64,000 nt of DNA from IMG/VR virus record IMGVR_UViG_3300005096_000005, positions 1 through 64,000 of that record; one strand, given 5' to 3'. The translations under genes were made by a program, and so were the position numbers. This stretch comes from a virus. The notes beneath the pieces are model-generated. The model saw only the letters and a list, made by a program, of their open reading frames with translations. It did not search any database and was not told the DNA's origin. Positions 25-27,771 of the stretch are shown one piece after another. Within the stretch, counting starts at the first letter, position 1. Each line of letters opens with the position of its first letter.

Positions 25-348
25 ATGGAAAACGTAGATACAGTATTCTTCCAGAATGACTGTGGTCCTCACTACGTCTGGACTTCCCTCGTTAACCATG
101 ACAACTTCTCTCCAGACTGTGAGATTATCGAGGAGGGGAAAGAGGGCGATGTACGATATGATGGAACGAACCTTGCAGAGTATATCGAAAGTGGAGCTGT
201 GTGTGAGAACTGCGGAGGTCCTCTCCTTACAGGATTAGACAATGAGACTTTGCAACCATGCGAAAACGAGTACTGTGACGGAGGAGAAGATCCTCTGGAC
301 AAGGAGCGACAGGAAGCTGAGGAAGACTATTATGAAGAGATAGAATGA
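25..348 (+). CDS. Acidic hypothetical protein with Cys pairs (possible Zn ribbon)
   Basis: ORF track; AAGG SD upstream; CENC and CENEYC motifs. Confidence 0.55.
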   Translation: MENVDTVFFQNDCGPHYVWTSLVNHDNFSPDCEIIEEGKEGDVRYDGTNLAEYIESGAVCENCGGPLLTGLDNETLQPCENEYCDGGEDPLDKERQEAEEDYYEEIE

Positions 349-646
349 AGAACCAAGACTCTATGTACTGGTCAGGAAGGATCTGCGTGGGTCTCAGCAG
401 GCTGTACAGGCAGGCCATGCAGTTGCTGAGTTCATGCTTGACAATCCTGGCTCGGAATGGAAGAATAACTACCTGATCTATCTGAACGTGAAAGATGAGA
501 TAGAATTGGGCGAGTGGATAGATAAACTCACCAGCCTTGGTGTCAGGTACAGCGTGTTTCGAGAACCTGACCTGGGACACCAGAAGACAGCAATTGCTGC
601 TGTTAACAGTAATGGATTATTCAAAGACTTAAAGTTGTTACGATGA
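332..646 (+). CDS. Peptidyl-tRNA hydrolase type 2 (Pth2)-like protein; probable start ATG 332 with in-frame TAG at 341-343
   Basis: Frame of ORF 434..646 extends upstream as NEEPRLYVLVRKDLRGSQQAVQAGHAVAEF...VFREPDLGHQKTAIA (Pth2 motifs YVLVRxDL, QxxHA, TA); GAGG SD precedes ATG 332. Confidence 0.75.
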
Positions 647-783
647 CCTCTACTTGCCAGTTCAAAGAGAAGTGCGCACAGGAGTAAGCTCCACAGGTAA
701 CTGGCAACCAGGCGGGCATCACGTGAAGCAGAACCTTCCTACTAATCGTTCTCGCTCCTTTATGGCCGTGGTGTTCGCCAACT

Positions 784-858
784 GACCTGTTAGCTCAGTG
801 GGAAGAGCCGGGCGCTCTAAACGCCTGTGTGTCGGGAGTTCGAATCTCTCACAGGTCA
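784..858 (+). tRNA. Amber suppressor tRNA (anticodon CTA)
   Basis: Cloverleaf GACCTGT/ACAGGTC; D stem GCTC/GAGC; anticodon arm GGGCG-CT CTA AA-CGCCT; T loop TTCGAAT. Confidence 0.85.
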
Positions 859-4506: not shown

Positions 4507-6008
4507 TTCCAGCCGAGATGGTACATGCAGGTTTGCTGTATGTTCCTGAAAGGTATGTTCTCAAAGAAGCAATTGAACGGTACACAATGAGGAACCCGGC
4601 GTTTGCTCAGGCGGTCGCCAACTCTGGAAACAAGAATCCTGACATACCAAAAACCATTCAGGCTTACAAAGAACTGAAGGGGTATATAGGATTCCCTCCA
4701 TACTCAGAACCAAAGCTTCTGGCATCGGAAGAACTGCCAATCAGAGACCTCAGATCCCACGGAGAGGACTTTGAGTTTACCTTTCGGGAAGACAAAGCGG
4801 AGCTACGTCCTGACCTGGTCTCAGAACAGAGGCTGGCTGTCAAGAAGCTTCTGAACCGTGGTCATGGTATGCTCGTGGCCAAGCCCGGCCAGGGGAAGAC
4901 AAATACTTTTATCTGGCTGATGTCCAAGATCAAAAAGAGCACGATCATCTTCGTGCATACGTCTCAACTCCAGAAGCAATGGTTTCGAAGATTCACGGAG
5001 CCTGACCCAAAGATTGGGAATGTAGCATGGACAAACGTGACAAAAGAAGATATTGCTCTGCTTGGCGACGGAAAGAAGAAGTATAGCGGACAGCCTATTA
5101 TCATAGCGACTTTGCAGATGACAGGACGGTCCATCATCCATAACAAAGAAGTTATGCACAAAGTCGGCATGGCTATTGTCGATGAGTGTCATCATCTCAG
5201 CGCGGATACGTTTCATCCATGTATGGCAGCCTGCCGTGCCTTTCATAAGTTCGGAGCAACTGCCACTCCTTATAGGACTGATAAATTAGATAAGATATTC
5301 TATGACCATCTCGGTGGCATAGCTGCAGTCATGAGGAATGTATCTCTCACCCCAACTGTGAACATCTGGCCGTTCTATACTGGCGTAGATCTGGATGATT
5401 GTACAACAAAGACAGGGAAACCATTCCTTCCTGGAATGATCAATGTCTTGTGTGCCAGTGACACATACAATGACTTTATCCTTGGGTTAGCCCTTATGCG
5501 GCTGATGGAGGGCCACAAGGTAGTAATGATAAGTCATAGAGCTGACCATTGCGTAAAGATTGCAGCCAGAGTACGACAGGAAGGATATAAAGCCAACTTC
5601 ATTGTTGCATCGTACACTGGACCTGACGATAAGCCCAAGACGCTAAGTGTTAAGAAACGTGAGGCCAGGTATGACAATCAGTTTATAGCTGCAACCCCCG
5701 GATGTATGATAGAGGGAATAGATATTCCTGATATAAGTTGCGTACAATTCGTTACTCCGTTCGGTGCCAAGAACATGGTTGAACAGGGCTGTGGCCGTGC
5801 TCAACGTCACTTCCCCGGGAAGTTGGATCCGGTAATTGACGACGTTCTGCAGGAAGACCACAGGATGCTGGTAAACCTCGGGAACAAACGCCGCCGGCAC
5901 TACGGATCATTCCACTGGCCTGTTTATTATAGAGAAGGCTCTGGATATACGGTAGATCCTGTAGCCAGAGCAATGTCTCAGCACATCACAGCAGAAGAAG
6001 AATTCTAA
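4503..6008 (+). CDS. Superfamily 2 helicase (UvsW/ResIII-like)
   Basis: PGQGKT Walker A, DECHH, ATAT, EGIDIP, QGCGRAQR. Confidence 0.9.
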   Translation: MIPAEMVHAGLLYVPERYVLKEAIERYTMRNPAFAQAVANSGNKNPDIPKTIQAYKELKGYIGFPPYSEPKLLASEELPIRDLRSHGEDFEFTFREDKAELRPDLVSEQRLAVKKLLNRGHGMLVAKPGQGKTNTFIWLMSKIKKSTIIFVHTSQLQKQWFRRFTEPDPKIGNVAWTNVTKEDIALLGDGKKKYSGQPIIIATLQMTGRSIIHNKEVMHKVGMAIVDECHHLSADTFHPCMAACRAFHKFGATATPYRTDKLDKIFYDHLGGIAAVMRNVSLTPTVNIWPFYTGVDLDDCTTKTGKPFLPGMINVLCASDTYNDFILGLALMRLMEGHKVVMISHRADHCVKIAARVRQEGYKANFIVASYTGPDDKPKTLSVKKREARYDNQFIAATPGCMIEGIDIPDISCVQFVTPFGAKNMVEQGCGRAQRHFPGKLDPVIDDVLQEDHRMLVNLGNKRRRHYGSFHWPVYYREGSGYTVDPVARAMSQHITAEEEF

Positions 6009-14950: not shown

Positions 14951-15103
14951 GTCGCACACACGCAGTAAGCGTACAAACATTGGAGTTAGCTCAAGTGGTT
15001 GAGCATCAGCCTATTAAGCTGAAGGTTGCTGGTTCGAGCCCAGCACCCCAAACCAGTCCCGGGGGACATAAAACACCCATCCGCTTACTACACCAGGTGC
15101 GGC
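14951..15103 (+). ncRNA. Module RNA 1: hairpin module clamped around a complete tRNA
   Basis: GTCGCAC/GTGCGGC and AGTAAGCG/CGCTTACT pair across the tRNA; ACCAG/ACAC loop; GCGTACAAAC. Confidence 0.75.
14980..15055 (+). tRNA. tRNA with anticodon ATT (nominally Asn), encoded CCA
   Basis: TTGGAGT/ACCCCAA; TCAGC-CT ATT AA-GCTGA; TTCGAGC; A73; CCA. Confidence 0.75.
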
Positions 15104-24993: not shown

Positions 24994-25843
24994 TTTACTA
25001 ACCACAGAGTTCATTGCCCCATACATTGGAGGACCTATCATCACGCGTATCGCCGGCATCGTCTATACATTCAGCCCCTATAGAATGAGCAGAAACAGGA
25101 ATGCATATCCGTGGCCAAAAACAGACCATGGAATATTCCGGTGGAAACCTATAGATACCAAGCGAGCTATCGCGCAACCGACAGGCCGGCTGGCATACCA
25201 TGAGTATCGTAAGTTTCTTGAACACTTCCCTATTCTCAAGGTAATCGTGATCCGTCGCCATGAAGGACAGTGGCTTACAGTTCCATGGAATGCTGAAGAA
25301 GTCTATACACGTTTTGGTATCGGTGGAGTACTTCCTGTTTACCTGTGCGATAGAGTAGAGCGCTTTGATGTAGTTAACGTGGCGTTTACTCCGGAACTGA
25401 TCTATATGGACCGGGCGAGACTGAGCGCTGGCTGGTTGCGGGAACTGAAAAGAACATGCTCCGGAGAACAACTTCCCGCCGACCCATACAACGTCCCGGG
25501 ACTTCCTCCGGAAGGCAGAACAGCTCTTGACTATCTGCTGAAGCGAGATGAGGAGTTGAAGATAGCTCTTGAAGAGCAAAGAATAAGAACAGCTCTTGGC
25601 CACATGGATGCTGAACTTGTATCCTACATGGATCAGGGGCCAAATCAGCTCGTCGTTAGATGGAAGTACCGTGGCATTGAGTACCGTACAGTAGTACAAA
25701 AGGACAACCTGGAAGTTGTATCCGCAGGTATATGCCTGAGTGGTCAGGACCGTAAGTTTGATCTAACGTCAATCGTCTCTGTTATGCGGGAACGTCAGGA
25801 TAGATGGGGCGATGATCACTTTAATCAACACGATCTTTATTGA
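24947..25843 (+). CDS. Conserved hypothetical protein with C-terminal SAGICLSG motif (candidate E2-like)
   Basis: ORF track; GICL motif after beta-meander-like segment; adjacent to Ro-like gene. Confidence 0.55.
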   Translation: MDIGSLMSKMKALDHDLLTTEFIAPYIGGPIITRIAGIVYTFSPYRMSRNRNAYPWPKTDHGIFRWKPIDTKRAIAQPTGRLAYHEYRKFLEHFPILKVIVIRRHEGQWLTVPWNAEEVYTRFGIGGVLPVYLCDRVERFDVVNVAFTPELIYMDRARLSAGWLRELKRTCSGEQLPADPYNVPGLPPEGRTALDYLLKRDEELKIALEEQRIRTALGHMDAELVSYMDQGPNQLVVRWKYRGIEYRTVVQKDNLEVVSAGICLSGQDRKFDLTSIVSVMRERQDRWGDDHFNQHDLY

Positions 25844-25851
25844 GGAAACGT

Positions 25852-27024
25852 ATGGACCATAAACCGATTCATTACGAGAGAGTGATAAGAGATGCTGCGA
25901 TATTGGCTCCTGAGCTGGTGGAGGCAGGGATAAAACCTTTCTCATGGATGGACCCTGAAGTTAAAAGGGAATGCGAACGCTTTGGCGATGACCTCACATA
26001 CTTCAGGTACACTTACAAAGTAATTCAGCCGTTCGTAAGCAGGAACGCCCACATTGTGGCTACAATCATGAATACATTGTCCAAGTCACCAGGACTTGAT
26101 GAAGGCTGGATGATCACCCATCTAATGATGGAATATCATACCTATATGTTCAATAGGTTTGGCAGGCAGGTGTTCAGCATCATGCCCACACTCGCAAGGA
26201 TGCTTGTTGACACTGACCTCGATGTCGACACAGACCTTTTGAAGATGCCGCACCGGAGTATATATCTGACATTCCCGCCCGACCTGTTCAGGATATGGAA
26301 TCAGATGTCCGGGGTTCATAATGTAGAAGGTATCTATGTGTGTGAGGATCCCTGGGATATCGAAAAGGAATTTAAGAACCTGCGGACTGACACGAGTGTT
26401 GCAGAAAAGCTAAACGTAGAACAGAACCGCGTACTGAGGGTTCTACTGGTGGGATCCACCAATAATGATAACGCTCTGGATGATGCTCTGTTCCACTTCA
26501 GGGTAGATATTGGTCCGGGAACTCTGGGTCAGTACATTGAGAAAGTCACCGAGCTGGCTATGGAAATCATATCATCCTCACAGTTTGATAGTGTAAGAGG
26601 TAACAAGTCTCTATTAGAGATACAGCACATCTTCAGGTTTGTTGCAAACGTGCTACTGTATATAAGCTCTTCTCATCCTGACGTCACAAAGCAGTTTCCT
26701 GATAAGTTCAGGAAGGAGATGGAAAAGTGTAAACGTCTCGGAGGAGGAAAGTCCAGAAAAGGGAAGCGTGCAGCAGAACGTGCCCGGAGATATACCAGTA
26801 TCCCACGTATTGTTCTCGGGGCAAACATACCAAAAGATCATTACCAGCCAGGAACGGGTTCGAAAGTGTCCAAACGTTTCAAAGTAAAAGGACACTGGAG
26901 AACATACACAAGCATGCGTTATACCGAGGAAGTACGCGGTAAAACTGTATGGATTAAACCTTTCTATAAGGGACCCGAAATGGCCGACGAGCTTGACAGG
27001 CGATACAAGGTTGGTTCAGAATAG
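25852..27024 (+). CDS. Phage hypothetical protein (C-terminal VKGHWR...WIKPFYKG motif)
   Basis: ORF track; GAGG SD before ATG 25852. Confidence 0.65.
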   Translation: MDHKPIHYERVIRDAAILAPELVEAGIKPFSWMDPEVKRECERFGDDLTYFRYTYKVIQPFVSRNAHIVATIMNTLSKSPGLDEGWMITHLMMEYHTYMFNRFGRQVFSIMPTLARMLVDTDLDVDTDLLKMPHRSIYLTFPPDLFRIWNQMSGVHNVEGIYVCEDPWDIEKEFKNLRTDTSVAEKLNVEQNRVLRVLLVGSTNNDNALDDALFHFRVDIGPGTLGQYIEKVTELAMEIISSSQFDSVRGNKSLLEIQHIFRFVANVLLYISSSHPDVTKQFPDKFRKEMEKCKRLGGGKSRKGKRAAERARRYTSIPRIVLGANIPKDHYQPGTGSKVSKRFKVKGHWRTYTSMRYTEEVRGKTVWIKPFYKGPEMADELDRRYKVGSE

Positions 27025-27051
27025 TAGTCCACAATAAATAAAGGAGGCCAC

Positions 27052-27771
27052 ATGGACAACCAAGACAAGAGTATGGCAGAGGGATCCTTTGCCGAAGTAG
27101 AAGAAGTCAATCCGAAGGAAGTAGAAGGTGAAGTTCTAAGAATCGACGACATTGTGCAAACCCCCGAAGATGTTCAGCCGAATGACACAGCGGAAGGGCC
27201 GCTCACCGCGGAAGACATCCCCAAAACTGAAGCACAGAAACAGGCGGAAGAACACCTCAGGAAACTGGAAGAGGGCTTCAAAGCCCAGCTCGCAAAGATC
27301 GAAGAGGACCTGAATGCCAAGGTTTCAGCCGGTCAGATGCTACCCGAAGCAAGGGACATCATCCTGCGTGCCGAAAGGCTCAAGCTGGACAAAGACCTTT
27401 TGAATCGCGCAGGTGTCGTTCAGATCAGTTACAATATGGTCTGGAACATGATCCAGACCTTCTTCGAATTCAGTACACTGCTCGAAGGTGGTCGGGTTAA
27501 AGCTCTTCGCATGAACAATAACCCGATACAGGGAACCATCGATGTTCTGTTCTGTCACGGAGATCTGGAGCCTCTGGCAGAAGGCGAGACCCCGCCGTAC
27601 GTACAGATGCCACAGCTTGCATTCAACGACTTCCAGCTCCTCATGGCGATTCGGAAAAAGGATCCGAAGCTTATGCAGAATACATTGCGTGCCGCTGGAT
27701 GGATGAACATAAACGTCACCGACCACACTCCGAAGATCATCGTCCCAGGGAACCAGGGAGGCGGCCAGTAA
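27052..27771 (+). CDS. Hypothetical protein
   Basis: AAGGAGG SD; ORF track. Confidence 0.65.
   Translation: MDNQDKSMAEGSFAEVEEVNPKEVEGEVLRIDDIVQTPEDVQPNDTAEGPLTAEDIPKTEAQKQAEEHLRKLEEGFKAQLAKIEEDLNAKVSAGQMLPEARDIILRAERLKLDKDLLNRAGVVQISYNMVWNMIQTFFEFSTLLEGGRVKALRMNNNPIQGTIDVLFCHGDLEPLAEGETPPYVQMPQLAFNDFQLLMAIRKKDPKLMQNTLRAAGWMNINVTDHTPKIIVPGNQGGGQ

Follow-up and report, generated by a model that had tools for sequence, protein, structure and literature searches.

The first 64,000 nucleotides of the virus record IMGVR_UViG_3300005096_000005 (a linear record of 170,138 bp, estimated to be 78% complete) include a gene for a protein that resembles the peptidyl-tRNA hydrolase Pth2, and the fourth codon of this gene is an in-frame amber stop (TAG). 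We will refer to these 64 kb as the window. A gene for a tRNA with the anticodon CUA, which is the amber-suppressor type, lies just downstream. Because this arrangement is also found in dozens of phages that are only distantly related, it is probable that no protein is made unless the tRNA overrides the stop codon. From these comparisons, we consider it likely that the Pth2-like protein of the window is produced by tRNA(CUA)-dependent read-through of the UAG. (We call an in-frame stop of this kind a gate, and a gene that has one gated.) The features of the locus, by position in the window, are:

319 to 325, plus strand: Shine-Dalgarno-like sequence GAGGAAG, with its GAGG core at 319-322, 9 nt 5' of ATG 332
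332 to 343, plus strand: leader ATG AAG AGA and, as codon 4, the in-frame amber TAG (341-343)
344 to 646, plus strand: Pth2-like body (NEEPRLYVLVRKDL...KLLR), with the TGA stop at 644-646
784 to 858, plus strand: tRNA with anticodon CUA (817-819), of the amber-suppressor type, identified with ARAGORN and Rfam RF00005
25 to 348, plus strand: upstream open reading frame (ORF) of 107 amino acids that belongs to no family; its 3' end overlaps the leader (listed for context only)

The initial annotation had described a Shine-Dalgarno sequence and an ATG at 332 that reads ATG AAG AGA TAG AAT GAA, and both are present in the sequence. Past the TAG, the frame continues AAT GAA GAA CCA AGA CTC TAT GTA CTG GTC AGG AAG GAT CTG (the assembled letters across the gate, at 300-400 of the record, include ...ATGAAGAGATAGAATGAAG...), and the base immediately 3' of the TAG is A. 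The only frame that is open for a Pth2-fold protein runs past this TAG to the TGA at 644-646. If the TAG is counted as a residue, then the product has 104 amino acids and reads MKR-x-NEEPRLYVLVRKDL...QAVQAGHAVA.... The first canonical in-frame start beyond the TAG is ATG 434, which is 30 codons downstream, and the conserved N-terminus of the protein had been placed 5' of this ATG. Indeed, the match to the Pfam family PTH2 starts at residue 10, the L of RLYVLV, which corresponds to position 3 of the profile, so the conserved first strand is encoded upstream of ATG 434. The public protein database entry for the gene (P0002) holds just the truncated product of 70 amino acids. Another ATG, at 345, overlaps the TGA (346-348) of the upstream ORF, which ends GAA TGA; this ATG is out of frame with the Pth2-like body and heads a frame of 43 amino acids that looks non-coding. 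Across the 170-kb record, a Shine-Dalgarno motif (GGAG, GAGG, or AGGA at -20 to -4) precedes 64% of the predicted genes versus 12% of random positions.

We collected 179 loci with relatives of this gene from IMG/VR and from the contigs of protein-database entries, read the frame around the conserved core, and collapsed the loci to 130 distinct core sequences. The homologues are about 95-100 amino acids long and usually start with M-x(1-3)-LYVLVR. An in-frame TAG is present in 61 of the 130 sequences and an in-frame TAA in 2, and none has an in-frame TGA; another 62 are ungated and the status of 5 is unclear. The TAG is early in 53 of the 61 TAG-gated sequences, where it follows an ATG and 1-5 codons and is separated from the core by another 2-5 codons. 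(Early stops after a short ATG leader occur at loci L002, L009-14, L028, L073-L101, and most of L103-L180.) Eleven of the TAG-gated sequences have internal TAGs, at about nine positions (L003, L016, L020, L027, L038, L041, L051, L065, and L073), and some sequences have both an early and an internal TAG. L028, which is 56% identical, has exactly the architecture of the window: M P Y TAG, four codons, and then RLYVLV. More broadly, the window fits a recurrent module that consists of a Shine-Dalgarno sequence, an ATG with 1-5 codons, a TAG (at codon 4 in the window), a (K/R)LYV core 2-5 codons further on (four in the window), an intact body, and a nearby tRNA(CUA) on the same strand; it matches L028, L013, L002, and about 50 others.

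Internal TAGs also account for several shortened database entries, which end at an in-frame TAG while the FxEPD...TA.A...L.LL part of the protein continues beyond it. In the P0075 lineage, which includes 23 contigs, the TAG is at core codon 66, and in the P0076 lineage it is at core codon 63. The genes that adjoin the Pth2-like gene in the loci of these lineages are themselves TAG-ended, as are those at L016-19. Two in-frame TAGs, at codon 3 and at core codon 24, are found at L073/L075/L113/L114 (IMGVR_UViG_3300021077_000115 and 3300046653_000093); at the position of the second of these in L073, 4 of 5 close relatives have Gln.

The frame downstream of the TAG is under strong purifying selection. 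In one early-TAG clade, the ratio of nonsynonymous to synonymous substitution rates (dN/dS) downstream of the conserved TAG was 0.03-0.14, with synonymous sites saturated. The TAG is kept in this clade, and these genes are not pseudogenes. Where the host makes use of a Shine-Dalgarno sequence, as for the window and nine relatives (L013, L028, L076, L077, L089, L092, L096, L097, and L100), it lies 6-9 nt 5' of the leader ATG. On a FastTree phylogeny of the 130 sequences, there were at least 15 changes between the gated and ungated states, which is a rough lower bound because a protein of about 100 amino acids gives weak tree support. Of the 31 gate contexts that we examined, 28 had a purine directly after the stop (A in 18 and G in 10), while the true stops of the 170-kb record are most often followed by T. 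Classical studies of stop-codon context (Bossi 1983; Miller & Albertini 1983) reportedly found that a purine in this position favours amber suppression. Finally, in the 20 kb around each of 42 gated relatives, there was no TAG-specific gain in long-ORF cover relative to a TGA control, so the gate sits in DNA that locally uses the standard code.

The same is true of the phage in the window. A codon-usage gene model, trained on the long ORFs of the record under genetic code table 11, predicted 152 genes that cover 93% of the 170 kb. These genes end with TAA (77), TGA (60), or TAG (15), so TAG is the rarest stop, and reading through the 15 TAG stops would add merely short, non-coding-looking tails, with one exception. 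When we searched the 170 kb for coding frames split by a TAG, for TAG-flanked segments, and for gaps in the gene model, just the Pth2-like locus was convincing (most raw hits of the split-frame search were antisense shadows of real genes). A genome-wide scan for a Shine-Dalgarno sequence, an ATG, 1-6 codons, a stop, and then a coding ORF without a nearby start returned position 332 alone. We found no in-frame TAG in the large virion genes of the record, and a domain search of the record found no release-factor domain (PF00472). Phages that use code 15, in which TAG is sense, have many genes with in-frame TAGs and a low coding density under table 11; here there is a single such gene in 170 kb. 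The initial annotation's statement that this is not global recoding therefore stands.

The exceptional TAG junction is at 27022-27060 of the window, where a gene (25840-27024) ends TAG TAG and is followed directly by a Shine-Dalgarno sequence (AAAGGAGG) and by the next gene, which begins in the same frame at ATG 27052. Neither of the two proteins belongs to a Pfam family. In a phage with an amber suppressor, the tandem TAG TAG may be a safeguard against the fusion of the two proteins.

The tRNA beside the Pth2-like gene is canonical in sequence. ARAGORN placed a tRNA with anticodon CUA at 784-859, and the Rfam model RF00005 matched 784-858 over its full length with 54.9 bits (the gathering score is 29). 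It has a canonical cloverleaf with a 7-bp acceptor stem, U33, A37, the anticodon loop CUCUAAA, and A as the discriminator base. It starts 138 nt after the stop of the Pth2-like gene and on the same strand, close to the 140 nt first reported. A scan for promoters and terminators found no terminator-like site on the plus strand between 646 and 784 and otherwise nothing decisive. Given the shared strand, the short spacer, and the lack of a terminator, the gene and the tRNA are probably co-transcribed. This is the sole suppressor tRNA of the 170-kb record; the 18 other tRNAs are at 15-23 kb. (That array is headed, at 14980-15055 of the window, by a tRNA that ARAGORN assigns to Asn with the unusual anticodon AUU.)

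The linkage between the gene and tRNA(CUA) extends to most of the relatives. A tRNA(CUA) is present in 94 of the 130 fetched loci, nearly always on the same strand, at a median distance of 289 nt and within 50 nt in 35 cases, and often there is no other tRNA in 20 kb. Among the anticodons in these loci, CUA leads by a wide margin (90 versus 41 for the next). Furthermore, among 589 phage tRNAs, the nearest neighbours of the window's tRNA are other Pth2-linked CUA tRNAs. At several loci (L077, L087, L096, L100, L102, L121, L153, L167, L174, and others), the Pth2-like gene has two different tRNA(CUA) genes nearby. Together, the bias towards TAG, the position of the Shine-Dalgarno sequence, the purifying selection, and the linkage to the tRNA support what was proposed at the outset, namely that the Pth2-like gene begins at ATG 332 and that its UAG is read through by the adjoining tRNA(CUA).

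The acceptor stems and discriminator bases of the linked tRNAs are too varied to assign an amino acid to this tRNA. Among 76 Pth2-linked tRNA(CUA), the loop CUCUAAA is found in 53, and 33 have A as the discriminator, 18 have U, 18 have G, and 7 have C, while the acceptor stems vary freely. Such variation is odd if one synthetase charges them all. The inserted residue is possibly Gln, which would fit an origin of the TAG from CAG; the basis for this is thin (the one aligned position in L073).

A few gates or tRNAs deviate from the TAG/CUA pairing. The TAA-gated gene at L014 (3001-3300) has a tRNA(UUA) 1.5 kb downstream (4794-4868) and no CUA tRNA. The C-terminal third of this gene no longer matches the family, and the gene may be decaying. 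The other TAA-gated relative, L082 (10001-10336), is an intact gene with no tRNA within 10 kb. The TAG-gated L092 has only a tRNA(UUA), which should also read UAG by wobble. This covariation of stop and anticodon is suggestive, with numbers too small for proof.

Turning to the protein, its score against Pfam PTH2 (PF01981) was 22.9 bits (the cut-off is 23), with an E value of 1e-4 over residues 10-79, and for some relatives a hit to PF01981 has been precomputed. The window protein also matches PHROG 3668 ("hydrolase") and PHROG 1866. A profile built from 81 relatives matched the solved Pth2 chains 24bt (E = 3.6e-5) and 2zv3 (E = 3e-4). We also built an AlphaFold (AF2) model from the family alignment, which had a mean pLDDT of 93.3 and a pTM of 0.85. 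When the model was compared to the PDB with Foldseek, the 13 best matches were all Pth2 or Pth2-like chains (TM scores of 0.70-0.76, probability 1.00), including 2zv3 from M. jannaschii, human Bit1/PTRH2 (1q7s), 1xty from S. solfataricus, 3erj, 1wn2, and 1rlk; the TM score was about 0.74 to each of 2zv3, 1q7s, and 1xty. Given the confidence of the model and these best matches, the predicted fold is that of Pth2.

The phage proteins share with archaeal and eukaryotic Pth2/PTRH2 (PF01981) the fold, the VQxxHA motif, and a conserved Thr. In contrast, they are shorter (about 95-104 amino acids), have another residue in place of the Lys of the GK motif, and carry the Glu of EPD as the acidic residue instead of the Asp of DAG. 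V25, Q26, H29, W43, E78, and T86 are invariant in the phage family. In HMMER alignments, the position of the archaeal GK Lys is taken by Q, S, or Y, and that of the DAG Asp by the invariant Glu78 of EPD. So the VQxGHA motif and Thr86 are retained, and of the Lys and the Asp, which we take to be the catalytic residues of archaeal Pth2, an acid is kept and the Lys is not. We therefore call the protein Pth2-like; its putative activity is the hydrolysis of peptidyl- or aminoacyl-tRNA.

A gated gene is also present in a cultured phage. In Acinetobacter phage vB_AbaM_ME3 (KU935715), the frame reads ATG ACT TAG ATT CAT GAA AAT AAA AAA CAT ACT TAT GTG TTT GTT AGA AGA GAT (L185, 2469-2806, or about 166598-166935 of KU935715, on the reverse strand). 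A "tRNA-OTHER, anticodon CTA" (ME3_tRNA4) is annotated about 420 nt upstream of the gated gene. The deposited coding sequence (CDS), ME3_195, starts at an internal GTG, 12 codons past the ATG of this frame, and its start has probably been mis-annotated. The genome note for ME3 mentions four tRNAs and says nothing about suppression. ME3 makes the idea of an amber gate directly testable.

Other named phages have the Pth2-like domain within a longer CDS (XacN1, Xoo-sp13, RAS14, and Hallingskeid) or as a short stand-alone CDS (RaK2 and Myrna). No gate is apparent in these six phages, where the match lies within the annotated CDS; the sequence upstream of the annotated starts was not read. Where the domain is part of a protein of 260-280 amino acids, it forms the C-terminal third: L181, 961-1800 (XacN1 ORF364); L183, 961-1803 (Xoo-sp13); L184, 2015-2800 (RAS14); and L087-L094. 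The Lak phages, which are TAG-recoded, also carry relatives of the Pth2-like gene.

How else might the protein be made? ATG-AAG-AGA-TAG could be a mini-ORF that ends normally, with the Pth2-like protein arising by re-initiation or from a non-AUG start just past the stop, and with no suppression involved. Many relatives have a near-cognate start (ATT, ATA, or GTT) as the codon directly after the stop, and gated loci that have no suppressor tRNA nearby, of which there are 14, would be accounted for as well. The window, however, has no usable start between the TAG and the conserved first strand (AAT GAA GAA CCA AGA CTC TAT GTA CTG). Nor would such a start explain why 61 of the gates are TAG, 2 are TAA, and 0 are TGA, the position of the Shine-Dalgarno sequence, the TAGs in the middle of genes, or the tight linkage to a CUA tRNA, and we think that this route is unlikely. 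Alternatively, the phage might be recoded in the ordinary way, similar to code 15, with TAG as a sense codon in a set of late genes within the 22% of the genome that the record lacks; the TAG in the Pth2-like gene would then be one of many. Recoding with suppressor tRNAs is well documented in phages, the recoded Lak phages have the gene, the record is 78% complete, and only 15 of 152 stops are TAG. But those 15 are real stops, and no other in-frame TAG was found in 170 kb, the large virion genes included; 42 gated relatives show no TAG-specific gain of ORFs over 20 kb, and the genes that flank L016-19 end with TAG. Ordinary recoding thus seems quite improbable.

Two further explanations would move the start of the protein. 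If the true start were ATG 345, in an ATGA overlap with the upstream ORF, then a 1-nt indel in AAGAACC, due to sequencing error or in a pseudogene, would have broken or mis-assembled the gene. ATGA overlaps are common at gene junctions, and restoring one base yields M-K-x-P-R-L-Y-V-L-V, which is a typical N-terminus for the family. Against this, one TGA in four should be preceded by an A by chance alone, and a GGAG/GAGG/AGGA motif lies upstream of ATG 332 while none lies upstream of ATG 345. Also, an in-frame ATG with a short leader and a TAG is found in about 50 distinct relatives, with identical spacing in L028, and the body of the gene is intact. An indel would be a very improbable explanation. 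The initial annotation had also raised a programmed +1 frameshift at GAA-TGA (343-348), which would fuse the 107-amino-acid upstream ORF to the Pth2-like domain. Such a shift at this site would indeed lead into the Pth2-like frame, and in XacN1, Xoo-sp13, and RAS14 the domain is at the C-terminus of a longer protein. This alternative fails because relatives with an early TAG have in-frame stops immediately before the leader ATG and have no upstream ORF to shift from. In addition, the upstream ORF belongs to no family and is not conserved beside the gene, re-pairing from GAA to AAU would be poor, and the tRNA(CUA) would be left unexplained, which makes a frameshift exceedingly improbable. We rejected the +1 frameshift as well as the indel at ATG 345 and the pseudogene, the latter two being contradicted by the recurrence of the in-frame design and the position of the Shine-Dalgarno sequence.

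Several observations weigh against read-through by the tRNA. A megablast search against 50,697 phage records found no near match to the record, and an assembly error at 341-346 might affect this record. Recoded genes could sit in the part of the genome that is missing from the 78%-complete record. Because 15 of the phage's own genes end in TAG, an efficient suppressor would come at a cost. For 14 TAG-gated loci, no suppressor tRNA was seen within 3-10 kb. Roughly half of the relatives have no gate and yet keep the tRNA next door, which implies that the tRNA is linked to the gene family and not only to the gate. A phylogenetically controlled test of the gate against the presence of the tRNA had just 3 supported independent pairs, too few to be informative about co-variation. 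The covariation of TAA with UUA comes down to one evaluable case, whose C-terminus looks degraded. Finally, the Pfam PTH2 score is just below the family's cut-off, and the phage family does not retain the Lys of the archaeal GK motif.

If the UAG is read by the tRNA, as we think likely, then expression would proceed as follows. Translation would start at ATG 332, and the ribosome would meet the UAG after three codons. Without a tRNA that reads UAG, release factor 1 (RF1) would release a tripeptide, which would have a negligible cost and would yield no enzyme. Once tRNA(CUA) is made and charged, it would insert an amino acid (possibly Gln) and the Pth2-fold protein of 104 residues would be completed. 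This requires that the tRNA is expressed, charged, and active in suppression, which we infer. The gene and the tRNA would then be a conserved two-part module, with the early amber codon as the lock and the tRNA as the key.

As to the purpose of the module, we favour the idea that the output of the hydrolase is tied to the activity of the suppressor. This might be a feed-forward arrangement, in which the enzyme would clear the peptidyl-tRNAs and stalled products that arise when TAG stops of the host and the phage are read through. Or it might be feedback, in which the enzyme would act on the suppressor tRNA itself and meter suppression. We have no strong preference between the two. That ungated lineages keep the gene and the tRNA together speaks for a direct functional partnership of the protein and the tRNA. 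More speculatively, the Pth2-like protein might hydrolyse the peptidyl or aminoacyl form of the suppressor tRNA, or recycle it after drop-off at UAG, which would create a closed, self-referential loop that meters UAG read-through; we offer this only as a tentative proposal. If true, the module would act as a portable homeostat of two parts that controls stop-codon suppression, with a logic like the autoregulation of release factor 2 (RF2), and the loop would explain why phages with the standard code carry amber suppressors at all.

We found no published description of an in-frame stop in a Pth2-like gene or of its link to a suppressor tRNA. The nearest known systems are the stop-recoded phages (crAss-like, Lak, and others), in which TAG is read as Gln (code 15) and the phage provides suppressor tRNAs (Borges et al., bioRxiv 10.1101/2021.08.26.457843; Peters et al., PMC9523058). 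As in those phages, a phage tRNA(CUA) is proposed to allow in-frame TAGs to be read, with expression once the suppressor is active. In contrast, recoded phages have many late, structural, and lysis genes that are recoded and have a low coding density under code 11, while here the density is 93%, there are 15 TAG stops, and one small gene beside the tRNA is affected. The preprint of Borges et al. (10.1101/2021.08.26.457843) does not mention peptidyl-tRNA hydrolase or any hydrolase. PTH2 genes in jumbo phages have been listed as putative ribosome-rescue factors, without a link to a stop codon or a tRNA (Iyer et al. 2021, PMC7824862).

The gate is also reminiscent of prfB, which encodes RF2: in both, there is an early in-frame stop in the gene for a termination or recycling factor, and output would be set by how that stop is decoded. 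However, prfB has an early UGA that is bypassed by a +1 frameshift and senses its own product, while here the bypass would be in-frame and by a dedicated tRNA, and feedback by the Pth2-like protein is only proposed. Also, the homologues have stand-alone leaders of 2-5 codons that are bounded by upstream stops. Another resemblance is to the bar-type minigenes of phage lambda, which are ORFs of two or three codons that release peptidyl-tRNA and are toxic if Pth is in short supply. Formally, the leader AUG-AAG-AGA-UAG counts as a minigene, and it precedes a gene similar to peptidyl-tRNA hydrolase, but this is a resemblance only.

Xanthomonas phage XacN1 is, like the phage in the window, a large phage with the standard code that has CUA tRNAs and a Pth2-like gene. 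Read-through of 18 amber stops by its authors revealed no target for its two CUA tRNAs (PMC5852040). The Pth2-like domain of XacN1 makes up the C-terminal part of ORF364 and is ungated. Screens of this type would miss targets such as the gated genes because a leader of 2-5 codons is never annotated.

Why phages with the standard code keep suppressor tRNAs is an open puzzle, and an amber-gated gene would be a concrete and testable answer. The amber codon is so early that gene callers never see it, and many "truncated" or "hypothetical" small genes beside CUA tRNAs are probably full-length gated Pth2-like genes. Translation that depends on a suppressor tRNA is already known; what appears to be new, and is well supported by comparison, is its reduction to a lock and key for a single gene in a phage with the standard code. 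If confirmed, this would be a natural translational lock-and-key for one gene, a possible evolutionary stepping stone to a change of the genetic code, and a compact orthogonal switch for synthetic biology.

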